In this document: in pieces, positions 7,115-59,716 of the stretch | Position numbering within the stretch: the first letter of the stretch is position 1 | Layout: each line of letters opens with the position of its first letter | IMG/VR virus record: IMGVR_UViG_3300045988_131726 | Reading direction: 5' to 3' (one strand) | Length of the DNA: 64,000 nucleotides | Origin: a virus | Made by a program: the position numbers and the translations under genes | Notes under the pieces: generated by a model | The model's input: only the letters and a program-made list of their open reading frames with translations | What the model was told of the DNA's origin: nothing | Database searches by the model: none

Positions 7115-9499
7115 TTATTCACACAATTTTTTACGTTCTTCTCCCGACTGAATAAATTCAGCACCTTCGTTAGTTTCAACTTTATTAGGCTCCTCTCCAT
7201 AAAAATCTTCTGGAGCAGAATTAGCCATCTCCTCCTCTATCTGAGCTTCTCTTATTATCTCAACTTCTTCCCAAGTATAAGGCTTATTAGGGCGAGATCT
7301 CTCTATATCAGAACTATCAAGATTAACTTCTCTAATCTTTCTAATCTCATTAATAAGCTTAACTAAGGGACTATCAGCTTCAAAATTATAAATCTGACGT
7401 TGGTGATTTTTAGCTACAGATTGAGAATCCAAGGGGAAGTTAACTCTTGAACCTTCAATATCTTGCTTCTTCTCGTTGTAATATCTTACAATAGGATAGA
7501 TCTTCTTAGTCTTATTACCATCTTCATCTGTAGCATATCTCTTCCCAAGAGGAAACTCAAGGGCCATTCTTAGATTAAACGGTAAGATACTATCATCATT
7601 GTAATTTGATAATTGCCAAGCATACAAGAAAGCTTCTCTCATAACACCATAACCTCTCTCTTGATAAGAATCTAGCATAGGTTTAATATAATCCCTATAC
7701 ATAGAGGCAGGAATAATGTCAATATAATTGAGAGGAGACATCTGAAGTCCTGATTGTAACAAGCAGAACTTCATTAAATCCATCGCAAATTCCTTATCTT
7801 GTAAATAAAGTTGTTCCCAAGCATAAGTTACAGCATTAGAAGCTAAAGGATCTTTATCTACGTAAGGTTTAATATTATGGATATCTTCTCTTACAGTATC
7901 TAAGATCGGTACTAATGCCTGGAACAAAGGATTATCTTTATATGCAGGCTCAGAACGAAGTCTAGCTAACTTCATAGGGACACTGTTATCACCTACCATA
8001 AGTCTCTTTCTCTCAGAAATTAAGGTCGTACCATTAGCATCTGGAGTATTGAGAATAATAGCTGTTAAAAAGTCATTCTTAAATTTATTAAGACTACTTA
8101 CAGCTTTATAATCAGGAGTAGGAGATGCTGTGTATCTACTGATCACGTCATCAAATAAACCATCTTGTCCATTAGTGAACTGCTCATCTCTAAGTAAGAG
8201 GAAGAGAGGTTTAAAGAAGTCTTTATATTCAGCAACAGCATTCTTATAACCTGCTATATAACCCTCATCGACTAGCTTCTCATAGTTAACTATATTCTCA
8301 CCTGCTGTAAGGCTTTTATGTAACTTCATGAGTAGTTCAGAGAGATTCTTACCACCATCTTTAGTATCATAGGTAGTACCTTGCATAGCATCTGCAACGT
8401 TACGCCCCCATTCAACATACCGAATAAAATCATCAAGAATCTGATTCTGATAAGTTAAATTCTGAGTAGTAATATAACTCTCAAGCTCATCAGCGGTGAA
8501 AACCTTAGCAGGAGCAGCTTCATCGATAGGAGGATATTTCATAGACAGATATGCTCGAATCTCATTCTTACTATATCGAGCCATAGCTGTGCCAGCCTTA
8601 ACCCTAGCTGATTTAGGAGAAACATAATTCTCCTGAGCAATCTGTGATTCATATTGTTGCTGTAGCTTTAAGTATTCACGAATGATAGGCTGGTTCATGA
8701 AGAGTGCTAGAGTATCAGGATGAACTCCTGCCATAGTAAGCATTGTAAGCGTTCCTAATGTTGCAGGAGTAGCTCCTAAATTCACTCCAAAAGGTGATTT
8801 AGCAGCATCCACAGCAGCACTAATCCACTGATTTAACAGCTCAGAAATAGGAATTTTCTTAGCACCAGCAGTAAACTTTCGTCCAAGCTGAACAACACCA
8901 TTTTCCTCATTGTGCTCAAAATTAACCTGAACTTTTTCTGCAGGTATCCCTAAGTCATACATGGAGGCAAATACATAGAATTTACCTGCATTAGCTGCAA
9001 TACCTACCTCTTTCTTACCAGCCATATAATTCTCAGCAACCTGTAGAACATATGTAGGATCTAGAATACTAGGAAGAGCCGCTTTAGATTTATAATACTC
9101 AGCCTCCATCTCATAAGTATCTCCAAAGACAGCTTTCATAGCTCTCTTGGCAGAAGCTTCCAAGATGTTGGTCTGAATAGGTGCTATAAAGTTAGAAGCA
9201 TTCTCAGCTATATGAGCAAGCTCTTTTTGAATCTGAGTAATACGATTCTCAATAGCTTTCTTGTGAAACTCTTCTTTAGATACCTTAGGAGTCTGCTCAG
9301 TATCTGCAAGCTCTTGTAGTAATTCACTGTTACCAAAGAATCCACTTAGAGCTTCAAGGATATCCTCTTTCTTCTCATCCTTAAAAGAGTTAACTAGTTC
9401 CTCATACTGTTCTTCCCAATGAGAATAATCTATGTACTTAAGCCGTCCCTTAACCTTATAATAATTAGGTACATATAAGTACATTTTATCAATATCATA
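7115..9499 (-). CDS. giant RNA polymerase, exon 2 (794 codons plus stop)
   Basis: The track ORF 7115..9502 starts at TTG, not ATG, and has no independent start context. After the predicted 3' splice site (omega-G at 9500) it reads YDIDKMYLYVP. This completes the universal RNAP metal-binding motif begun in exon 1. Confidence 0.8.
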   Translation of the reverse strand, partial: YDIDKMYLYVPNYYKVKGRLKYIDYSHWEEQYEELVNSFKDEKKEDILEALSGFFGNSELLQELADTEQTPKVSKEEFHKKAIENRITQIQKELAHIAENASNFIAPIQTNILEASAKRAMKAVFGDTYEMEAEYYKSKAALPSILDPTYVLQVAENYMAGKKEVGIAANAGKFYVFASMYDLGIPAEKVQVNFEHNEENGVVQLGRKFTAGAKKIPISELLNQWISAAVDAAKSPFGVNLGATPATLGTLTMLTMAGVHPDTLALFMNQPIIREYLKLQQQYESQIAQENYVSPKSARVKAGTAMARYSKNEIRAYLSMKYPPIDEAAPAKVFTADELESYITTQNLTYQNQILDDFIRYVEWGRNVADAMQGTTYDTKDGGKNLSELLMKLHKSLTAGENIVNYEKLVDEGYIAGYKNAVAEYKDFFKPLFLLLRDEQFTNGQDGLFDDVISRYTASPTPDYKAVSSLNKFKNDFLTAIILNTPDANGTTLISERKRLMVGDNSVPMKLARLRSEPAYKDNPLFQALVPILDTVREDIHNIKPYVDKDPLASNAVTYAWEQLYLQDKEFAMDLMKFCLLQSGLQMSPLNYIDIIPASMYRDYIKPMLDSYQERGYGVMREAFLYAWQLSNYNDDSILPFNLRMALEFPLGKRYATDEDGNKTKKIYPIVRYYNEKKQDIEGSRVNFPLDSQSVAKNHQRQIYNFEADSPLVKLINEIRKIREVNLDSSDIERSRPNKPYTWEEVEIIREAQIEEEMANSAPEDFYGEEPNKVETNEGAEFIQSGEERKKLCE

Positions 9500-10412
9500 C
9501 AATAATCTCTTATACTTTCATATAAGTTTAGACTATATCTTCACTACTAATAGTAGTGTTCTGCATTTCAGGCTCTAAAGCCCTACCCAAAGATTCTTTA
9601 TCATATAATGATCTAGATCTTTGACTTAAGTCGTATGTAATTTTATGTATCATACATGGAACTTCTGATACAAATGGTTTGACAATTTCAAGAAATTTAA
9701 TACCTTCTTTAGTACCACAGCATAAAGAATAAGTACCTCTACCTTCTGATATAGGATAGAAAGAAATATTCCATTCTTCCTTAAAGAAATTTATTACATT
9801 CTGAATGGTTTCTTTATCCTCACATAGGGATATTCTTATATAGAATCCATGGCATTTACCTTTAGTAATTCGATAATTGATACATCCATCATCCATATAC
9901 CAGATAGCAATACCTCTTGCATCTAACCTATTTAGAAGACGTCTATTACCAAGATACTTCTTAGGCTTATAAAATATCCTCCTAAGCAATTTAATGAAAG
10001 TTGTTATTCCTAATTGAGTATATAAAACTTTTTGACCAGTATTATATCCGCATGTACTAACATATTCATGTATTCCATTATTACGAATACCCGCATTATT
10101 AAGTTGCTTAACTTTCCACTCTAAATAATCTCTCTGTGCCTCAGAATGAGATAATTTAAATACATTATTATTACTAATAGTTCCATCTCCTAGTAATAAT
10201 GCAATTAATAAATTTCTTGAATCTTTATTTAACTTAGTTTTCATACGCTTTGTTATCCATTAAGGAAACGTTATTTAAGTATTAGTCGTTGAGCCTTCCC
10301 CATATGGGGCTTGGCTGCGGATTGCCCAATTCTAAACATTGTTACACTTCGGTAGTTTAGACTCTAAGGGGGTCCCCGCAATTAACAGAATTTTACTCGA
10401 ACCATGATATTA
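9500..10412 (-). mobile_element. group I self-splicing intron (913 nt) carrying a LAGLIDADG homing endonuclease ORF
   Basis: P1: exon ctcggaU (10419..10413) pairs with gttcgag (10402..10396), with a terminal U.G wobble. P10: exon-2 tatgatatt (9499..9491) pairs with aatatcatg (10411..10403), 9 bp. P7-like pair acgacta (approx 10283..10289) / tagtc (within 9530..9545). A P9 hairpin cttata-tgaaag-tataag follows, and the intron ends in G at 9500. Confidence 0.8.
9528..10244 (-). CDS. LAGLIDADG homing endonuclease (double-motif, intron-encoded)
   Basis: 238 aa with two LAGLIDADG-type motifs (LLIALLLGDGTI and IAIWYMDDGC). It lies entirely inside the intron. Its last codons (EDIV-stop) are the P7 3' strand of the ribozyme core. 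Confidence 0.85.
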   Translation of the reverse strand: MKTKLNKDSRNLLIALLLGDGTISNNNVFKLSHSEAQRDYLEWKVKQLNNAGIRNNGIHEYVSTCGYNTGQKVLYTQLGITTFIKLLRRIFYKPKKYLGNRRLLNRLDARGIAIWYMDDGCINYRITKGKCHGFYIRISLCEDKETIQNVINFFKEEWNISFYPISEGRGTYSLCCGTKEGIKFLEIVKPFVSEVPCMIHKITYDLSQRSRSLYDKESLGRALEPEMQNTTISSEDIV

Positions 10413-13400
10413 ATCCGAGCCTGCTTTAGCAACAATCTCTGTAGGCAGAACTATAATATCACCAGCAGCTTCAGGGAGGAAATCTTTAACAACAATAGTT
10501 TCTATTGAGCTAAGTCCCTGTGTAGGGATACGGAATCCTATAAGCTGTAGCAACTCAGGAGGTACTTTACCTACCTTTGTAATACCCTTAAACGGTGAGG
10601 GAAGATATACTTCCATAGATGTAATCTTAGGCTTACCATCTACATATTTTACTACGAAGTCTAAGTCCGAAGATTTATACTTACCTTCATTATATGTACG
10701 GCTTGCCTTAGTTTCCCACATGGTCGAAGGCACCTGGAATGCTGCTGTACCATGACGTTTCTGAGAAGTAGTCATACTTGCAGCTCTGCTCATAAGGATG
10801 CTCTCAATCTTCTCACGTGTAGGAAGAATATCTATATTAGTAGTACCATCATCAAGATTATCTAAGAGTTCTATAGCAGTAATGTAATTATCCGCTAATC
10901 CCCTTTCAATAGCTTCTCGGCGTAGAGAATTAACAAGACTTACAATACCCTCTTCAGAAATCTTCCATCCCTTCTTAGTTGCTACAAGACCTAACTCTTT
11001 AACAAGTTGATCTCTACCTATAGCAATACGTTGATTATTCAGACTAATATACTCCTCAGCTAAAGCTTTAACTTTAGGAGCATTCTCTCCAAAGTGTTCA
11101 CTGATCTCACCCGCATCAAAGAGACCATTAAGAATCTGTACCATCATCTGAGTACCAGTAACTACATCATGGTGTTTATGTTCACCAGTGTCTACTTGAA
11201 TACCCCAATATTCCCAATAAGTATCTTGAGTAAGAAGATCTAAAGGCCCAGTATAATTACCTTCAGTATCTACCAAGAAGTTACCTTCTTTATCGTAGAA
11301 GTCATTAAAAGGATGCTCTGTATTTGTAACTAATACACCTTCCTCATTAGTAACCGAATTAGTCTTAGTAGTTACACCTTTATTAGCTGAATAGTGTACG
11401 GCTACACTAACCTGATTCTTAATCATTAGTTCGTGAAGCTTAGAGAGGTTAGTATCTCCTAAAGCCTTCAGGACAGAAGGTATTAGAGGCATCAATGAGA
11501 GCTTATAGAAAGATGGTTTAAATCCTTCAACATTAGCTAAAGGACCAAAGTGCTGAGGTTTTAAGGAATTAAATACTTGAGAACCCCAGCTGCCACGAGT
11601 TAAAGGAGATTTATTACCATCAAAGTCTACAAATACTCTCTCCTCAACAGGAACTCCTGCTCTTTCTTGTACTTCCCATTGATAAAGCTTTTCAGAATCA
11701 AGATTCCAATCCCCTACTCTAACTTTGAATTCTCGGTAAGCATCTAAAGAAATCATTCCAAAACCGTCACCCTCAGTCATATCTGCATAAGGAGCACTAT
11801 TAAGACCCAACTTATCCGCATTCTTAATAAGAGCTTCTGTCATCATATCCTCAAAAGACTTACTCTTATCAGAGTGCTCATAAGCTTTAAGAACATCATT
11901 GCGAAGTGCCTTATATTTATTATTCTCAGCATCTACAATCTCAGCAATCTGATATAACTGCTTAGAATAGCTAGGAACATCTGAGAATACAGCAGTTCTA
12001 AGTATAGGCTTACCACTTTCATCAGTAAGATTCTCAGCACCATCCATACGCTTAAAGTCACGTGCTATAGTAGTATTAATACCATCAGATGTTAAGCAGG
12101 TTTTCTTAGAACCCATAGCACCATTGTGGCGTTTGAATTCATCACCTAAAGATTTATAGAATATATTATCTCCATATAATATCTTACTTTGCTCAATATT
12201 ACCGATAGCATAATTTACTACTGCATGGCGTATCCAGCTTATGACGTTAGATTTAGAGTACTGATTAGTAGTAGGATTAGTACTTAGCTTTAGGGACATG
12301 TTCAATACTTGATCGTTAGCTAGTTCTTTAAGACCTCCTAGGTCTATTAGCTTATCATAAGCATTGCTAGTCCAAGTATTAATCATCCTCTCTATACGAG
12401 TAGATAACACATCTCTACCTATAGTATTAAGAACTCTGTCTGCAAAATCATTAGGAGATTCGGCAGTATCTACTAAGAATTCTTTAATCTCATTAGGAGT
12501 TAACAAACTTTCAATTACTGTACCCTTAGTATAGTTTTTGTTAAAATTTGTAAACGCTCTATCCTTGATATGAGATCTGGCAATTTCATCCCATAAGTAG
12601 CCTCTGAAAATATCTATAACTTCTCCACGAGTAGTATTTACATTAATCCAAGTATCTCCATGATCCAGGAATCTCTCTTGACCATTATCGGCAGGTCTCA
12701 TAATATTATCCCTACCTTCCATAGTCATATTAAGGACTGTAGAAAGCTTATCTATAAGCTTCATATCCTTATAATCCGTTCCTGTACCATTAGAATTCTC
12801 TCTATTACCTTCATGTATCAAGATTGATAATTTAGGAGTTCTCCTATCTACAAGAGCTCTATTAAGTAACAAAGAGTGCGTTACGTAAATATTATGAGAA
12901 GGATCTAGATGAGGCATCTCTGAATATAGCTTCTCAGGACTATCTATAACTCTATTAATCTTATTAATTGTCTGATTAATATAACCAGGCTTTTGAAGAT
13001 CATAAATTCTTTCATCTCCAAGTGAAATGTGAGAATTTTCTAGAGTTTCTATACCAAGATCTGATTGTATATCTAAGAAAGCATCTAAGTTCTCATTCTC
13101 TCCATCACGGTTCTCATTTACAATAGGAGTCTTTAAAGATCCCTTGAGTATCTGATAGTAAACCTGCCCTATCTTATCCAAAAATCTCTTAGTATGCAAA
13201 GCTTTTTGAAGAGTCTCAGGATTATTGATATCATAGGTTATTCCTAAGATACGTAAGAACTCTTCGGCATTATCAGCAGTAGGAATACGAGGAAAAGCTT
13301 TCTTAATAGCATCTGCATTATATTGCCAAACTTTATATTTATTGCGACTATAAAATTTGATAATATCAGGGTTACCTTCTAGCAACCACTTAGATAACTG

Positions 13401-16400
13401 AGCTCTCCATGCTCCTGCAATACGAGCTCTATGACCTACAGTAGAAGCATTAAAGATAGTGTACTGCCCATTAGCTTTAGTAATACCTATAAGATAATTA
13501 TTCTTGTTATTATTAAATGCTTGCATGAACTGTACAACCTGAAGCATATCTGAAGCAGACCAGGAATCAACCTTATCTAACTTGAGCCAAGAAGGAACTA
13601 CTTGAGTAATTATCTCTCCTTCGGGAGTTCTAAGTGAAACAACCTCATCTCGAATGAGAGGATAAATTGCAGGATACTCTTCAGCAACTTGAGATAATCT
13701 CTTCTGTAGCTCTTGCATAGAAATGCTAGTAGGGAGATTAGCTAACTTATTTGCTAAGATATTAAAGACCTTACCAAAGGGTTCTACCTCAGGCATTCCT
13801 AAGCTATTCTTATAAGGTATAGCTTCCCGAGTCTTAAAATCATAATGTTTCTTAGGTAAGGTACTAAGAAGCAGCTTTATGATCTTATTAGAGTTCATCT
13901 TACTACTTACAGTAATAGATTCCGCAAATAAAGCTGCAGAGTCTCGACCTTGATTACTCTCACCACCTGAGATCTCAGAGGCGGATTCTTGATAGTCTTC
14001 AGACGTGTTTAACTCTAATTTATATTGTGCTAGCCGCTCTTGCTGATGTAAAGCTTTGATTCCCTTAGGGTCATTCCAAGTTTCTAGAACTTTCTGTAAT
14101 TTCTCAAGATCAGAGAGATATTGCTCCATTAAATTAGGATCTGCGAAAGCTATAGAGGATAGGATTTCATTGTATCGACCTACAAACTCATTATGAGCAA
14201 ACTCATAAGCCTCAGATACAATCTTAGCATTTTCTGACTGCAGTATATCAATTAGATTACCATTCTCCTTAAAGTACTGTAGAAACCAATAGTGTAAGCT
14301 ATTTACAGCGTCTGCTGTAGTAATAGCATCTAAACCTGGGATAACCTTATAGTGAGGAGATGTTGCCTTTAATGTAAGATAGTCATTCATAAGAAAACCT
14401 TTATTACGAACTCTCTCTACAATAGATTGTATACTTTGAGTCCATTCCCTATTGGGTTTACCAAGATGCCGAATGTTATTATATAACCTTGTTAATTGAT
14501 ACTTGATATACTTAAAGATCTTCTTAATAAAGTTATTATCTTCATCCTCAGTTACCATAAAGTCTGCAAAAGCTTCAGCTAGAACCTCTTCAGCTAATTC
14601 TTCACTACCTAATTCAGGATATAAAGGTTTTAATGAATCAAAATTACTTTTATACTCATCATTATTAAGAGCTTCCCTTACTAGGTTAGCTTTCTCATCG
14701 GCTGTAAGTAAGCAGTCCAAAATAACGTGAAATGCCTCATGATATACAGACTCTGCACCAGTACCTTGATATACAGTAACTACACTATCCTCAAATTTAC
14801 CAACTACATTCTTAGCAATAGCAGACTTAACAATCTTGAAGTCAATATCAGGAAACTTCTTCTTAAACCATTCTCCAGCTTTATCTAATTCCTCATTCGC
14901 AGAATTACTCATTTGCTCATATGTCCTACGGAATTTTGTAACTGTAGAAATACGAACACTATCATTAGACTTCTGTGACGTAGCGTTTAGATTGTTAGCC
15001 ATATCTAGGGCTCTCTGAAGTTGAGCTCTAACCTTAGGATCTGTAGTGCTTTCAAGCTGCCTCTGAAGTGCTGCTATAGCAGGATTACTAGACTGTGTAG
15101 TAGGTTCTGAAACAGGAGATTTCTTATCTTCTACAAGAGTAAGCTTAGCATTAAATTGAGTAGGATCCTTAACCCCCATCCTGTTAGCAAGGTATGCTTG
15201 AGCAGCATTCGCAACATCTGCTAAAGTAGCTCCCTCTCTACCAGCATATTGGTTAAGCTGATCTGCAACAACTATAGGAAAAGCATTCTCCTGATCAGAG
15301 CTAACAATACTCCTACCATCATATTGAGCTTCAAAGTCAAACCTATTAATATTACCATTCGCAGGATTAGTAACCTCAAGTGTCATCTTTACAGGAGTAC
15401 CGGATCTAATAGTATCAATAACACTTGCTAAAGACTTCTCTTTAGAAACCTCTTCTTTGGCCTCTGAGACTTCATCAGAAGTAACAGTTTCTACATTCAG
15501 AGGATCATATGTCACATATCGCTCAGCATGCGCGTAAGGACTATTAGGATCTACTACAAAGTCTACTAGGTTTTCTCTAACAAAAGTATGGTAATTTTGG
15601 TATTTCTTAGCTCCTAATGTACCATCTTTATTAATCTTAGTAGGGAAGTAATAAGGATCTTTACTTGCAGGATTAATCTTTGAATAACGAGGGTTATAGA
15701 AAGCTTTACTTAAGAAGTTATTAACCTCTGTAAGAAACTCTTCGTTAATAACATAGTTACCATTTTCATCTCTTACAGCCGCATCTATCTCTTTATCCCC
15801 AATATTCCACCTTACAGTATTCTGACCATTCTCATCCTTAATATTATATAAAGTACGAGCAGGATCACCATGACTATTATACCTAAGTAAATCTCGTAGA
15901 ATTCCAAAAAAGTCGTAATGTATAAATTCTTTACCACTCCTAAGAGTATACTTATCACTACTTACAAAAGTCTTTCCTTTAATAGATTTAGCAATATAAT
16001 GCCTAAATAAATCTACTAAGAACTGCCTAGTTCCTGCTTGAATGGGTACTGAGTTAGCCCTATAGAAATTATTATTCGTAGCATCATGGATAGCCATTGT
16101 TCCTGCAGGAACAGTAAAGGTTTGGCCATTCTCTGTAATAATTCTACCAATATTTGAAATATAAACCGTTAAAGTATTTATATCCATATTAGCAGGTAAA
16201 CTCTCAGCTAAAGGCTTAAGCTGTGCAGGCTTCTTAATAACATCATGTTTGTACTTATCATCAATAATACCAGCACTTGTTCCTTGAATAACAACAGGTA
16301 CACTTACACCATCTTGTAGATGTTCCCAAACATCTCTAATATAAATAGCCCTGTAGTAATCAAAGCTCTTCTGAGTACCATAGTACTTACCATCAGCATC

Positions 16401-19334
16401 GGTTGTAGGATCTGCTACAGTAGTATAGACTGCCTTATTAAGATCAAGTTCTTTTCCAATAGAGTTCCCATCGGCATCTATGTAATTTCCGTCGTGATCT
16501 GTGAGAATTAATCTACCCGCAGTCTTTCCTTCATATTTGAAAGGTACTATAATACCTCTATATTGAGAAGCATCATGTTTATCAAGGAAGTCAAACCATC
16601 GTATTTGATCCACATTACTATTCTCACGGCTAGCTATATCAGAGCCTTTAGAACCCCGCCAATAATTTTCTGCAGATCTCTTAGGAGGATCCCACAAAGC
16701 ATCATTAGCTTCGGGAGTATCAAAGCTATCAGAACGAACAAATTCTATCTCCTGAGCATCGTTATTCTCAGGATTAGCATCCTTAATTTCTTCTCCGGAT
16801 GCTTTAATAATCCTATCTTGAGCCCGATGATATAAATTATCAATTTCTTCAATAGCTTCTTCACTAAGACTTGAGTCATTCTTATATCGCTCTCTCCAAA
16901 TAGCTAGATCATCCAGACTCTTAAGTTCATCTACTTCCTTACGAAGCTCCTTACGTTTAGCAGGAGTAAAAAATTTGACTTCAGGGGTGGTAGTCTCGGG
17001 AGTAATAGCTTCAGAAGCCTCAGGAGTTTCTTCCTGATAACTCTCTAAATCCTGAGCTGTAACAGGTCGTTCATCTCCTTCCTCATTAGTAAGTATAGGC
17101 ATACTATAAGTACCGAGCTCATCATCATAGCCACGAAGGAAATAATTATCTCCATCCTTAACTACTTGAGCTCTATTAGTAAGTATAGGTTGATTATTAT
17201 CATCATACTGTACTAAAGGCTTATTTGCCTTAGATTCAACTGCCTGCTTTTCAGCTTCAGCAGCTATTCTTTGCAGTCTCTCAACTTCGGTCTCAAGCCA
17301 CTTCTCTTGATACTCTTTCTTAGTAATCTCCTTATATTCCTTATCAACATCATCTAAAGCTTTCTTAACATCTCGATACTGCTTAATACGGTCAGTAAGA
17401 GTTTTATAAGCTTCAGGAGCTTCAGATTGTGCTAAGGTTTTTGCATTAGCTTCGAAGTTAAGATCTTTATCTAGGCTCACATTATAAACAGGAGATTTTG
17501 CACTTAAGGATTCATTTAAATCTGTAAGTTTATTCTGGATATCCCTATATAAATCTTTACTCCAAGTTTGAAGAGTATTATGTCGAATACGATTGTCAAA
17601 GATCTCTTGACTATTAGGATTATGTGAAGCTAAGATATACTCATTCTCAGATTCATTAATGTATTCTTTTAACTTCTGAGCTTGCTCTCTTTCCTCAGGA
17701 GTTCTACTAGTATCATTAATAATATCTTCTGTAGATCTCTCTAATGCTGTAATAGTACCATTCTGAATAGATTCAGTAATGAGATCTGCAGCCTCCTTAT
17801 TCCACATAGCATCCGCAGTTACATCGTCTCCCCTAGAGATAGCTTCAGCTTTTAATGCCTCAGCTTGAACAATATTATTAAGCTTATTATTAATTCCCTT
17901 AATAAATTCTTGTTGCTTAACATATGATTGATATTCCTCCTCACGACGTTTACGACCTAGAATATCTCCAGAAGCTATATTAGCAACAACTCTAGATACA
18001 GCTCTTTGTCCAGGGCCTGTAACTGCTCCCATAAGACCTTCTACGATCGCCTGCTTTGAAGTACCAAAAGCAAGAGCTCTATCCCAGAAAGTATCACCTA
18101 GCTTCTCATCTTCCTCAGTTAAAGTACCAGCAGCCTTACGAACTTGGTATTCCCCCTCCATCTGAAGAATATTCTGTCCAATTTCTTCGGCACCTTCCTT
18201 AGCTCCCTGAATAAGTATATTATCTGCAGAAAGCTTACCTAGGTTCTTAATAGCCTTAAGTTTCTCCTTAGGATTAGTAAGAAGTGCTTGCCTAAAAGCT
18301 CCTTTGCTCTTAACAAGACCATGAAGACCTATGGCATCTGTTAGCATGAATATTCTATTGTTACGGACGAATTCAGCCTGTTCTTTGCCTATTCTAGCTT
18401 GTACCTCAGTGTCGTTATTAAACTCATCTTCTGCTAACTTACGAGCATTCTCAATACTTAAAGGAATAGGAGCATCTTTGAACTGCTCATAGTATTCCCG
18501 AGCTTTGGATTCTATGTACTGCTGCTTAGCATTCTCTCCAAGCTCAATAGCCATCATCTGGCCTTCAGCATAGTTAGTAATAGTACCAGCAGCAACATCT
18601 TTAGCTATTTCCCCAAGGGAATTTGCAAGTACCTTGGTACCTGCAGAAGCATTCATCTTAGCAAGTCCTCTAGCAGCTAAAGATCCTGCTCTACTAAGTT
18701 TAACAGCCGCACCAATACCTTTAGATACAAGACCTCCTGGGATAGCAAAGCCTACTACCGAGTCAATCATACCCTTTAGAGTACTGAACTTAAAGAACTG
18801 GCCTAAAGCACTATCACTCTCAGTCTCATATATAGGCATAGTTTCATTAAGACCTTCTTTAAATTGTCTCATAGCTTTAGACAACCAATTATCACGGTCA
18901 TTATCAAGCTTATTCCATGTATTGTAATGACCCTCAAGGTCAAGGATATAACCAATGTCCTCAAGAGCTGTAGCAAGACCACTAATAGCACCACTAACTA
19001 TAGCATTGGTAGCTTTTAAAAATCCAGACTGTTCATTAGCTCTAAAGGCATTAAGGTCTCGCATTTGATTAAGCTCAGTAATACCCTCATCATACGAAGA
19101 GGGATTACCATTAGCAGCTTGTAAATATTCTTGACCAATATTAGACTCATCCCCAAATATTGATCGAGAGAAGTCTACATCATGCTGAGCCTGTTCAGTG
19201 AGAAACTCATTCATCCCATAGGACTTGGGGGCTAATCTATTAACCCCCGGTAGTCCTTGGATATTATCGTACTGAGCTTTCTCCTGACTTATCTGGAATA
19301 GTGCATCATTAAGTTTCTTTAAATTCTCATCCAT
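10413..19334 (-). CDS. giant RNA polymerase, exon 1 (2974 codons) with N-terminal zincin-like region
   Basis: The C-terminal end FRIPTQGLSSIETI...IVLPTEIVAKAGSD aligns by eye with bacterial beta-prime NRAPTLHRLGIQAF...IQLHPLVCAAYNAD(FDGD). The ORF stops at TAA immediately after the 5' splice site. An HExxH motif (HEAFH) lies at 14727..14741. Confidence 0.8.
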
Positions 19335-38868: not shown

Positions 38869-39217
38869 CATTTAAACGTTACTGATATACCGTTACCGTA
38901 TATCATCTACAACTTTCGTTGTAGTTCAGACTATATCTTCACTGACAAATGTCAGGCAAGGCATTTCGGAGCTACTTAGCCCCTACTCCCAAACGGGATA
39001 GTCGTTGAACCTTTAATTATAAATATCATTATAATTACTTGGCTGCTGGTTATCCAATCTTTTCTATTTTCAAACTTTCACGCTTAGTATTGCTACTTAC
39101 GTTGTAGTTAGGAAAGCTCTAAGGAACTTCCAGCAATTAACCTTGTTTTAAAGCCTCTCTTCTGTTCCTGGGTCAGGCTTGTGGGAACTGAGAAATGTGT
39201 AAAGGCTTACGCCGTTA
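38869..39217 (-). ncRNA. ORF-less group I intron (349 nt) in the major capsid gene
   Basis: P1: exon tggggaU (39224..39218) pairs with gttccca (39188..39182), with a terminal U.G. P10: exon-3 tgaga (38868..38864) pairs with tctca (39193..39189). The core shares gcagccaag, aaggYtcaacgacta and a 16-nt identical agtgaagatatagtct (38943..38928) with the polymerase intron. A P9 hairpin ctacaac-gaaa-gttgtag is present, and omega-G is at 38869. Confidence 0.8.
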
Positions 39218-40223
39218 ATCCCCACATATAACCCCGATACTCTTCCTTACCACGAACCTTAGCTAGCTGAATATTAGGCTCCTCAGTAGTACCAATACAC
39301 ATAATATCATAACGGTACGACTCTGCAACACCGCCATTCGGGTGCATGATCTTGTTACGTACCTGATCGTCGTAGAGAGGATTAACATCAATCTGAATGG
39401 TTAGACCATTAGGAGCTTTGTACTCTACAAACTGGAAACCTGCACTCAGGGCATTCTCATGAAGCTTACTTGAAGTCTTTGAAATAATAGCAGGATTAGC
39501 TGCATTGCCACCAAGATACTGGAATACAGTCCATCCAGATACTACATCAAGAACTGCCTTATGGAACTGTACAGCACCACGAGAACCAGTCTCAATAATA
39601 AAGGTACGATCTGAGTAGTCAAGCTTCGACTCTGACAGCTCGAAGAGAGCATCCTCAAGAGTCTTCAGACTAAACTTAGTGTAATAACGAGTATTACCTA
39701 CAGACATCTGAGCACGGATACCATCACCCATCTTAATGACATTACCGGACTTACCAAAGTTCAGATACTCACCGTTCTTATTACGGTTCGAGCGGCCAAA
39801 CATTATAATGTTCGACTTATATTCTGAGAAGGTTTCCTCCAGCTTATAGTCTACATGGTGAATCCATGAATTTGCTACTTGCTTATTACCAGCCTTATCT
39901 ACAAAAGGTATACCAATGGCCAGCTTCTTATCAAGAATATTTCCAGGAACCTTAGTCTGAATACGAATGTGTGACCACTCATTACGCATAGCAGTAGAGC
40001 TAGTATAACGAACATCGCCTACTTCCAGCGACATCGTATCCTCAACAGGAGCATATTCCCAGCTAAACCGCTTACCAGCAACAAGCTGACTTACGGGCAT
40101 ACCATCAAGGACGCCTCCCATAAGTTCTACAGTATAAACTGCATTCGAACCTTCAAGTCTCGGCTGACCCAGAATACGCAGGGGATAAACCTCATTAAGT
40201 TCTCCTACAATTACCTCACCATC
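39218..40223 (-). CDS. major capsid protein, exon 2
   Basis: The track ORF 39207..40226 begins at TTG with no start context. Large GC-enriched ORF following the scaffold-like gene. Its 3' end is set by the P1 pairing at 39218. Its 5' end is set by analogy (omega-G in aaattg at 40224). Confidence 0.7.
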
Positions 40224-40543
40224 CAATTTGTTATCCTAGAGGCTCTTTATCCTCTAGCTCTATAGATTTACTATCTCTATAGTTCGGAGTACATTTTAAT
40301 CCTATTAACATATAGGATCCGGACACTCTTGGAAGAATTATATTCTACGCTTTCTACTTAAATACCTAGCATAGGTTCATCTTCTACTCTCTACACTACC
40401 TATTAATATTATTTAATAGGTTAGCTCGGTATTAGCCAATCTTAATGTAGGACTAAGATAGAGGCCTTCACCGATTTTGCCCAATTTTCAGTATACATTA
40501 CTGTATAAAGCGCCAATTTTAGTAGCTAAGCTACTCTGGGTCT
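40224..40543 (-). ncRNA. putative group I-like intron (about 305-320 nt) in the major capsid gene; 5' boundary uncertain
   Basis: A 300-nt non-coding hairpin-rich gap lies between two same-strand MCP ORFs. It shares attgggcaa and gaaggc with the polymerase intron. The 3' architecture is analogous: ctatagag, P9 hairpin ctagagg-ataaagag-cctctag, then gataacaaattg ending in G. A weak P1 (cgcU/ggcg, 40514..40511) places the 5' splice site after 40544. The alternative site is after 40529. Confidence 0.5.
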
Positions 40544-40906
40544 AGCGAACCAGTCTTCGGGGAAAACAACCTTGAAGGGCTGTCCATTGGCACCAGCAAA
40601 AGTCTCAGTTTCCTCATTATTCTCAAGAACCTGATCACTCATGTCACGAGCCTCAATGATCGGAATATTACGACGCGAGCTGCCAATAACTTCCCATGTA
40701 TACTCATCATCAGTCTCAAAGTACTTAACAGGGAATCTCTGGAGATAACTATCGAGACTCTTGCCACGATGCTGAGCCAGAAGCTGTACCATAATATTAG
40801 TAGCTTTCTGAGGCGCACGACCAAAAATAGCTCCGATGTGGTTATCTCGGGTTAAGCCTTTCCACGAAGTGAAGGCTTTCATTTGAAATTTACCTAATAG
40901 TTGCAT
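40544..40906 (-). CDS. major capsid protein, exon 1 (about 121 codons)
   Basis: ATG ORF 15 nt after the scaffold-like gene. Read-through ends at TAG 40528..40526. The best-guess junction gives ...FPEDWFA|DGEVIVGE..., for a 505-aa three-exon product. Confidence 0.6.
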
Positions 40907-59627: not shown

Positions 59628-59645
59628 AAAGTTAAAATTAATTAG

Positions 59646-59716
59646 CTGGGATAGAAGGAATCGAACCTTCTCCGAGTGGTTAATGACCACTTACTCTACC
59701 TTCGAGCTATATCCCA
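59646..59716 (-). tRNA. tRNA gene with a non-canonical anticodon loop (nominal anticodon AUU)
   Basis: The cloverleaf can be read. Acceptor TGGGATA/TATCCCA; D arm GCTC-GAAGGTA-GAGT; anticodon stem AGTGG/CCACT with loop TCATTAA; T arm GAAGG-TTCGATT-CCTTC; discriminator G; no encoded CCA. Position 33 is C rather than U. Confidence 0.7.

Follow-up and report, generated by a model that had tools for sequence, protein, structure and literature searches.

A group I intron with a LAGLIDADG endonuclease gene very probably interrupts the catalytic DxDxD codons of a crAss-like virion RNA polymerase

The most abundant human gut viruses are the crAss-like phages. The window, a 64,000-nucleotide stretch of viral DNA (IMG/VR record IMGVR_UViG_3300045988_131726), belongs to one of these, a member of the order Crassvirales close to the Steigviridae phage cr108_1. 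Two long open reading frames on its minus strand flank an endonuclease gene, raising the question of whether they are two separate genes or, as the initial annotation proposed, one gene interrupted by an intron. The features concerned are as follows.

10410..19334, minus strand: ORF of 2974 aa (ORF list)
7115..9502, minus strand: ORF of 795 aa with a TTG start (ORF list)
10413..19334, minus strand: exon 1 of the virion RNA polymerase gene, 2974 codons (translation)
9500..10412, minus strand: group I intron, 913 nt, UAA at the start and omega-G 9500 at the end (Rfam RF00028)
9528..10244, minus strand: LAGLIDADG homing endonuclease ORF, 238 aa plus stop (Pfam PF03161)
7115..9499, minus strand: exon 2 of the virion RNA polymerase gene, 794 codons plus stop (translation)

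On the sequence evidence, 9500..10412 is very probably a group I intron that carries a homing-endonuclease gene, lies in the virion RNA polymerase gene and would be spliced from its transcript.

Exon 1 ends in ...IVLPTEIVAKAGSD (last codons GCA GGC TCG GAT) followed by TAA, the UAA opening the intron being an in-frame stop for this exon; its last residue is the first Asp of DxDxD. From position 9499 exon 2 reads UAU GAU AUU GAU (YDIDKMYLYVP), and the TTG start of the 795-aa ORF consists of the last three intron bases. Removal of the intron joins the exons in frame and gives the 3768-aa product originally predicted (...AGSD/YDIDKMYLYVP). Within the catalytic D-Y-D-I-D motif, the intron separates the codon for the first Asp from that for Tyr, and DYDID is whole only once the exons are joined. 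An 800-aa stretch spanning the junction aligns with chain residues 1194-1775 of phi14:2 gp66 (PDB entry 6VR4; E 1.8e-31), the comparison suggested initially, and AGSD/YDIDKMYLYVP aligns with gp66 TGSDFDIDKMYVMLP without gaps through the catalytic SDFDIDKMY segment. Exon 2 alone matches gp66 residues 1480-1777, and exon 1 alone gave no match in the PDB. The window product, recognizable as gp66-like only after exon joining, thus reads as a crAss-like virion RNA polymerase of the phi14:2 gp66 type; gp66 itself is uninterrupted and has 2180-2194 aa, compared with 3768 aa here. In phi14:2 the virion carries the polymerase, which transcribes the early genes (PMC7886860), and homology and gene-block position suggest that the window polymerase would do the same.

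The match to group I introns is far beyond chance. The covariance-model search proposed in the initial annotation (Rfam RF00028, Intron_gpI) returned 53.6 bits at 10164..10444 on the minus strand, above the gathering score of 50 (E-value 8.4e-11, whole window searched), and a second match of 23.7 bits to the 3' core at 9511..9543 on the same strand. With the covariance model broken by the 620-nt ORF insertion, the first score only just exceeds the threshold; in phage cr108_1 the sibling intron at this very site, which has no ORF, scores 80 bits. The window was compared at the same nucleotide position with IMG/VR relatives L001-L015, and three allelic states were found: intronless (L002, L003, and L004), with continuous AGSDYDIDKMY at the predicted junction; an ORF-less intron of 296-297 nt (L001, L005, L007-9, L014, and L015); and the 913-nt intron (the window, L006, and L010-13). 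The intronless alleles, together with the U/omega-G rule, define the exact intron boundaries, and the 3' terminus at 9500 is a G, as first proposed. Two of the contigs with these alleles, L002 and L004, are near-identical relatives (about 96% nucleotide identity in the flanks). The junction peptide aligned as a single piece in 134 of 136 matching phage records, and among the 58 matches listed the alignments reach or cross the catalytic motif; homologs are therefore not two genuine proteins, and the claim that the two ORFs form one gene stands.

It is extremely unlikely that RNA splicing plays no part and the locus instead holds an intein, or two genes with a free-standing homing endonuclease gene between them. 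Phages often carry inteins and free-standing endonuclease genes, crAss-like phages among them (PMC7886860), but there is no in-frame fusion here, exon 1 stopping at the first intron codon; a Pfam search found no Hint or intein domain; and the ORF-less 296-nt versions at the same site score 80 bits as group I introns.

The ribozyme of the group I intron comprises the following elements.

10396..10419, minus strand: P1 and P10 guide (sequence; compensatory pairs across lineages)
10283..10390, minus strand: 5' half of the ribozyme core (Rfam alignment), made up of the next five elements
10390..10385, minus strand: P3 5' strand
10380..10375 with 10321..10316, minus strand: P4
10372..10355 with 10337..10325, minus strand: P5/P5a
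10315..10293, minus strand: P6/P6a
10289..10283, minus strand: P7 5' strand, ACGACUA
9500..9564, minus strand: 3' half of the ribozyme core (Rfam 3' match 9511..9543; pair counts), made up of the next five elements
9564..9559, minus strand: P3', GCAGAA
9558..9542, minus strand: P8 hairpin
9535..9530, minus strand: P7', UAGUCU
9526..9509, minus strand: P9 hairpin with a GAAA loop
9508..9500, minus strand: tail AGAUUAUUG, last base omega-G

Both exon-recognition helices were found as initially described. In P1, the exon sequence CUCGGAU (10419..10413) forms seven pairs with the internal guide GUUCGAG (10402..10396), the last being U.G. Between the two P1 strands lies the P10 guide AAUAUCAUG (10411..10403), and P10 pairs intron nt 2-10 (aatatcatg, 10411..10403) with the first nine nucleotides of exon 2 (tatgatatt, 9499..9491) through eight Watson-Crick pairs and one G.U. 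In a set of seven sequences representing four phage lineages, pairing in P1 is complete (100%), three of its pairs are compensatory, and the helix tracks exon codon differences, while its closing U.G is invariant (7/7). Of the nine P10 pairs in the window, six are countable across lineages (95% paired, three compensatory), and these also covary with the exon. The P3-P9 helices (P3, P4, P5, P5a, P6, P6a, P7, P8, and P9) are paired in 99.6% of cells over eight variants, with 10 compensatory pairs, located in P3, P5a, and P6a. The cross-lineage set of seven sequences is 99.2% paired, with 13 compensatory pairs including those in P1 and P10, compared with only 28-44% pairing in slid controls. P8 is also among the helices with compensatory changes, along with P1, P10, P3, P4, P5a, and P6a. 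P7, A(C)GACUA with UAGUCU, is invariant and shows the guanosine-binding site, a bulged nucleotide adjacent to a G-C pair. A P2 helix is absent from the 9500..10412 intron. The P1 alignment given by Rfam is wrong, as it takes an exon-internal hairpin.

Conservation of this kind bears on a further alternative, namely that the intron is a dead relic, with the 2974-aa and about 795-aa chains forming a split polymerase or the genome being defective. GenBank and RefSeq do list the equivalents as two separate hypothetical proteins. Multi-subunit split RNA polymerases are also present in other phages. This alternative is nonetheless highly improbable, given that it would put a single Asp and the remaining two on different chains, and that exon 2 lacks a proper start, having only the TTG from the last three intron bases. 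Moreover, pairing in the core helices is 99%, with compensatory changes, P1 and P10 follow the exon codons in four lineages, and an intron is present at this site in 11 independent contigs, whose exon flanks are constrained by the fit to P1 and P10.

In the favored reading of a spliced group I intron, the intron in the pre-mRNA would fold into the P1-P9 ribozyme, and guanosine would attack after U10413, held in the U.G pair at the end of P1. P10 would position exon 2, with release of the terminal G9500. Ligation at the predicted RNA junction GGCUCGGAU/UAUGAUAUU would produce ...GGC UCG GAU/UAU GAU AUU... and a single 3768-aa polymerase with its metal-binding motif intact; translation of unspliced RNA would end at the UAA that opens the intron. 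That splicing occurs in vivo, and autonomously, is what we infer from these sequence features. The mechanism, group I splicing and homing, is itself textbook.

The presence of a LAGLIDADG endonuclease gene in the intron was borne out by a Pfam match to PF03161 (LAGLIDADG_2) that covers profile positions 3-167 of 168 with E 1.7e-18 and 67.5 bits (cut-off 25). The 238-aa ORF also matches PHROG 11023 (E 1.8e-16), and its similarity to solved LAGLIDADG enzymes (I-SceI-type monomers) is full-length but weak (E about 0.1). Its translation contains two LAGLIDADG motifs, LLIALLLGDG (residues 12-21) and GIAIWYMDDG (residues 111-120), both conserved in all five copies and in three distant homologs, with the acidic residues kept (LGDG, MDDG). 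The ORF occupies the P7-P3' interval, the position of P7.1/P7.2 in subgroup IA introns; it overlaps P3' and P8, and its stop lies just past P7'. The gene is under purifying selection (dN/dS 0.05 at dS 0.77), and five of five copies are intact. This two-motif protein most likely cuts intronless alleles of the polymerase gene in co-infecting phages, and repair of the cut allele would copy the intron in (homing).

Less probable, though still worth weighing, is that the intron splices with help, the LAGLIDADG protein acting mainly or additionally as a maturase that stabilizes the ribozyme rather than purely as a nuclease. Maturase-type LAGLIDADG proteins occur in some fungal mitochondrial introns. 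The P5 extension of the endonuclease-bearing lineage is shorter by ~46 nt than that of the ORF-less lineage, so that the endonuclease-bearing intron might need protein help to fold; the ORF overlaps P3', P8, and P7'; strong purifying selection is compatible with either role; and such proteins were called "endonuclease maturase" by Yutin et al. 2021 (PMC7886860). However, the acidic residues of both motifs are retained, as for an active nuclease, and the discordance between intron and exons suggests that the element is still mobile. ORF-less introns sharing this core also persist at this site, so the core can evidently work without a cis-encoded protein.

The discordance is apparent in two comparisons. 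The window and L012 are 84% identical in their exons and 99.8% in the intron, while L012 and L010 are 94-96% identical in their exons and 88.6% in the intron; this disagreement indicates horizontal movement of the intron. Every intron-bearing allele has GGCTCGGAT/TATGATATTGATAA at the insertion site, and intronless L002 and L004 carry four synonymous differences within the P1/P10 region. In cr131_1, cr116_1, and bajarodcaudo virus 1, homologous endonuclease-bearing introns occupy two insertion sites in the same DxDxD motif, separated by 6 nt, and the intron-split polymerases of these phages are annotated as separate proteins. As anticipated for ORF-based annotation, which would leave the polymerase without its metal-binding site, public annotations of related phages miss the intron: at least four deposited genomes (cr108_1, NC_055878; cr116_1; cr131_1, NC_055902; bajarodcaudo virus 1) record the catalytic virion RNA polymerase as two unrelated proteins and an "endonuclease" or "hypothetical" gene. 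Joining the exons gives back the active site and exact splice coordinates.

Classical phage group I introns include those of T4 td, nrdB, and sunY, and the SPO1 and Bastille DNA polymerase introns with I-HmuI and I-BasI. Like the window intron, these are inserted in highly conserved, active-site-coding parts of essential genes, have a stop codon at the intron start, and carry the endonuclease ORF in a peripheral loop overlapping core helices; variants with and without the ORF exist, as do related introns at neighboring sites in related phages. Their enzymes are of the GIY-YIG or HNH type, in contrast to LAGLIDADG here, and the window host gene, a single-chain two-barrel virion RNA polymerase, is unlike the classical hosts.

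The window intron is a further member of a kind already known from crAss-like phages (Yutin et al. 2021, PMC7886860) and from the PhiPA3 virion polymerase. The former share virus order, intron class, and endonuclease family with the window. An intron-encoded LAGLIDADG is named in the Fig. 3 legend ("Transcription gene block") of that study, and its text assigns the introns of the Delta and Zeta groups to the genes for capsid, PolB, primase, and ATPase (PMC7886860), in contrast to the Steigviridae (phicrAss001 family) lineage of the window. No polymerase splice junction is given there; the exact junction, RNA pairings, three allelic states, and two neighboring insertion sites are described here. 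A later review describes Zeta-group RNA polymerase ORFs as broken within DxDxD (PMC10136315), and an intron in the DxDxD codons suggests a concrete explanation for this "fragmented DxDxD". The PhiPA3 gp210 intron is likewise a mobile endonuclease-bearing group I intron that splits the gene for a phage virion RNA polymerase close by conserved aspartates of the catalytic region, and its endonuclease acts on the allele of a related phage that lacks the intron (Birkholz et al. 2024, PMC11620839). However, the polymerase of PhiPA3, a Pseudomonas jumbo phage, is multisubunit, the PhiPA3 intron lies in a beta-like subunit rather than a beta-prime-like DxDxD motif, and its enzyme is an HNH nickase rather than a LAGLIDADG protein (PMC11620839). 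The activity and competitive effect of the PhiPA3 enzyme were established by experiment (PMC11620839), whereas those of the window enzyme are predicted.

The natural three-state polymorphism (no intron, ORF-less, and endonuclease-bearing), in nearly identical backgrounds and with clear signs of horizontal intron transfer, offers a ready system for studying intron homing and endonuclease-mediated competition among gut phage strains. It is tempting to speculate, tentatively, that intron and endonuclease are more than a passenger and together serve as both weapon and shield between strains where gut crAss-like phages co-circulate. By analogy with the action of PhiPA3 gp210 on PhiKZ, in co-infections the enzyme would cleave competitors lacking the intron at their polymerase active-site codons; persistence of ORF-less introns would follow from their destroying the target site; and intronless L002 and L004 would survive through their four clustered synonymous "escape" changes. 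One endonuclease family may have followed the motif over at least three Crassvirales lineages, with the site shifted by 6 nt.

The virion RNA polymerase gene in the window is very probably interrupted, within the codons of its catalytic DxDxD motif, by a group I intron with a LAGLIDADG gene, removal of which would restore the polymerase active site. The ORF list places three ORFs consecutively on the minus strand:

10410..19334, minus strand, ORF of 2974 aa
9528..10244, minus strand, ORF of 238 aa
7115..9502, minus strand, ORF of 795 aa with a TTG start

In translation, the 2974-aa ORF has the C-terminus IVLPTEIVAKAGSD followed by TAA. The TTG "start" of the 795-aa ORF is the final three bases of the intervening sequence, and from 9499 this ORF reads YDIDKMYLYVP. 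As proposed in the initial annotation, joining 10413 to 9499 is in frame and yields a product of 3768 aa; the predicted junction has GCAGGCUCGGAU on the exon 1 side and UAUGAUAUUGAU on the exon 2 side. DNA comparison alone permits a one-base slide (GAT/T...G/TAT or GATT/A...GT/AT, slashes marking junctions), which is settled at 10412/9500 because a terminal G is required.

A query of 800 aa with the junction at its centre matches gp66, the virion RNA polymerase of crAss-like phage phi14:2 (PDB 6VR4, E 1.8e-31), and the alignment runs unbroken across the predicted splice site (teivakAGSD/YDIDKMYLYVP against teiptkTGSDFDIDKMYVMLP in gp66). Searched singly against the PDB, exon 1 gives no match at E <= 0.01 and exon 2 matches gp66 residues 1480–1777 only; ORF-by-ORF annotation therefore loses the catalytic site, as had been predicted. 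In the cr108_1 record the split polymerase appears as two "hypothetical proteins", and the same holds for PQ006092, NC_055902 (cr131_1), and MT774389 (L001 and L072–L074, respectively, in our numbering of related viral loci). The PQ006092 record places a 31-codon "hypothetical protein" within the ribozyme, and the annotated upstream CDS of cr131_1 reaches into the intron.

The question of whether the two large ORFs are two genuine proteins was addressed with homologues. The junction peptide matches 136 phage records, of which 134 align over the region as one piece; the 58 of these 134 among the matches listed all extend to or past the DxDxD motif. The two exceptions are both cr108_1, in its GenBank and RefSeq versions. 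A genuinely split polymerase was rejected as an explanation. The nearest GenBank phage is cr108_1 itself (Steigviridae, Pipoluvirus; 85.5% nucleotide identity), where the same site is occupied by an ORF-less intron of 296 nt (80 bits, Rfam). Fourteen close relatives in IMG/VR occupy three states at the identical nucleotide:

No intron, AGSDYDIDKMY continuous: L002, L003, L004
ORF-less intron of 296–297 nt: L005, L007–L009, L014, L015
913-nt intron with endonuclease gene: L006, L010–L013

The group I assignment is borne out by Rfam model RF00028, which matches 10164..10444(-) with 53.6 bits (E 8.4e-11 over the whole window; gathering score 50). A second, separate match at 9511..9543(-) (23.7 bits) covers the model's P7'/P9 end and consists of UGAAGAUAUAGUCU and then a GAAA hairpin; the match falls in two pieces because the 238-codon ORF sits within the intron. 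The ribozyme elements, all on the minus strand, are as follows:

10419..10413 with 10402..10396, minus strand, P1
10411..10403, minus strand, P10 guide
10390..10385 with 9564..9559, minus strand, P3
10380..10293, minus strand, P4–P6
10289..10283 with 9535..9530, minus strand, P7
9558..9542, minus strand, P8
9526..9509, minus strand, P9
9500, minus strand, omega-G (terminal intron G)

The window intron lacks a P2 helix. The coordinates of P1, P10, and the terminal G in the initial annotation proved exact, and its P1 agrees with the intronless alleles and covaries. Rfam's own P1, which pairs GAGAUUGU with GCAGGCUC within exon 1, was dropped because it leaves no U.G at the junction. The endonuclease ORF begins between P7 and P3', runs across P3' and P8, and ends at a UAA directly after P7'. 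Subgroup IA introns carry P7.1/P7.2 between P7 and P3'; because of its element in this interval, the window intron may be termed only "IA-like". An intein and a free-standing endonuclease gene were rejected as explanations.

After everything between P7 and P3' had been deleted, eight intron variants were aligned and scored against a hand-drawn P1–P10 structure. Pairing was 99.6%, with both partners changed in ten pairs (P3, P5a, and P6a), against only 33–46% in slid controls. Addition of three distant homologues (cr131_1, cr116_1, and bajarodcaudo virus 1) left 99.2% of cells paired and gave 13 compensatory pairs. P9, which is supported in the eight-variant alignment, was excluded from this wider count, being misaligned there by MAFFT. 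P1 and P10 contribute three of the compensatory pairs each; the guide sequence there tracks the differing exon codons of each phage, which confirms the splice sites independently.

The distant homologues were identified through endonuclease homologues of 62–66% amino acid identity, flanked in all three genomes by two large "hypothetical" CDSs. Rfam group I pieces flank the ORF on both sides in cr131_1 and bajarodcaudo virus 1 (44.9–47 bits 5', 32–33 bits 3'); cr116_1 gave no Rfam match at E <= 0.01. Every junction is matched by a P1 guide of its own; the three read:

cr131_1 (Suoliviridae): TGSD/FDIDHLY, same site as the window
cr116_1 (Steigviridae, Pamirivirus): GSDFD/VDKEYLM, 6 nt downstream of the window site
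bajarodcaudo virus 1 (unclassified): GSDFD/VDKMYIMLP, 6 nt downstream of the window site

The endonuclease ORF of cr131_1 (2501..3229 in L073, NC_055902) contains two in-frame TAG codons, one aligned to a Gln of the window's protein, and the polymerase exons contain 15 more. TAG recoding is known for the group of cr131_1, and these codons fit it, implying that the intron ORF would be translated under the phage's altered code.

The 238-aa ORF matches Pfam LAGLIDADG_2 (E 1.7e-18, 67.5 bits, cut-off 25) and PHROG 11023. Both of its motifs, LLIALLLGDG and GIAIWYMDDG, have acidic ends, and its alignment with I-SceI-type monomeric enzymes is weak but spans the full length. The ORF is intact in five of five copies, with dS 0.77 and dN/dS 0.05 between the two lineages. 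We infer that the ORF encodes an active endonuclease and that the intron splices in vivo, and does so autonomously. Further LAGLIDADG homologues occur elsewhere in the cr108_1 genome (MT774385.1 74916..75458; distant, 27.5% identity) and in MT835470.1 (52% identical).

Intron and exon histories are discordant in the three pairs compared. The window and L012 share 84% exon and 99.8% intron identity, L012 and L010 share 94–96% and 88.6%, and the ORF-less L007 and L014 share 84–86% and 99.3%. ORF-less introns (L005, L007, L009, L014, L015, and L001) show discordance like that of endonuclease-bearing ones and are therefore mobile between genomes as well; recombination may account for this, or an endonuclease acting in trans. 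Judged from P5 extension and P6, which differ, the two kinds are separate lineages and not simple deletion derivatives. Every intron-bearing allele keeps GGCTCGGAT/TATGATATTGATAA, and the putative intronless target is GCAGGCTCGGATTATGATATTGAT. The intronless L003 reads GGCTCAGAT/TATGATATTGAC. L002 and L004, with flanks about 96% identical to the window, read GGTTCTGAC/TACGATATT; their four synonymous differences (-7, -4, -1, and +3) all fall within P1/P10, which fits either a constraint from RNA pairing or resistance to the endonuclease. A 22-nt P4/P5 string, AATTGCGGGRACCCCCTTAGAG, recurs in 44 stretches of viral contigs from IMG/VR (L028–L071) in which the guide sequences are quite different. 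Large phage contigs and several giant-virus MAGs (GVMAG) are among them; the ribozyme core is therefore part of a very widespread intron lineage.

Mobile introns inserted in the active-site-coding sequence of essential phage genes are a classical pattern; the window intron is a kind of element already known, here newly and well resolved. It corrects the annotation of prominent gut phages and offers a natural system for studies of intron homing and competition. Dense group I introns and inteins have been described in Delta and Zeta crAss-like phages (Yutin et al. 2021, PMC7886860). The Fig. 3 legend of that paper mentions an intron-encoded LAGLIDADG within the transcription gene block; its text contains no polymerase junction. 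A 2023 review (PMC10136315) notes unexplained breaks within DxDxD of Zeta-group polymerases. PhiPA3 has a group I intron encoding an HNH enzyme in the gene for a virion polymerase subunit, adjoining conserved aspartates, and this enzyme handicaps the competitor PhiKZ (Birkholz et al. 2024, PMC11620839).

A split also affects the major head protein gene of the window (PHROG 11589): ORF 40526..40906 covers profile positions 5–121 and ORF 39207..40226 positions 122–450. A weak group I match, below threshold, occupies the 300-nt gap between them (40260..40533(-), 23.4 bits, E 0.0037), and the remainder of the gene lies downstream of a strong ORF-less match (38907..39240(-), 81.5 bits). The phage therefore has at least two group I introns, and probably three. 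The window's single tRNA gene, 59645..59716(-) (Rfam 56.3 bits; tRNA-Asn, anticodon AUU, by ARAGORN), has the anticodon loop UCAUUAA, with an unusual C for U at position 33; it may have been miscalled, or be a tRNA of non-standard or suppressor type.
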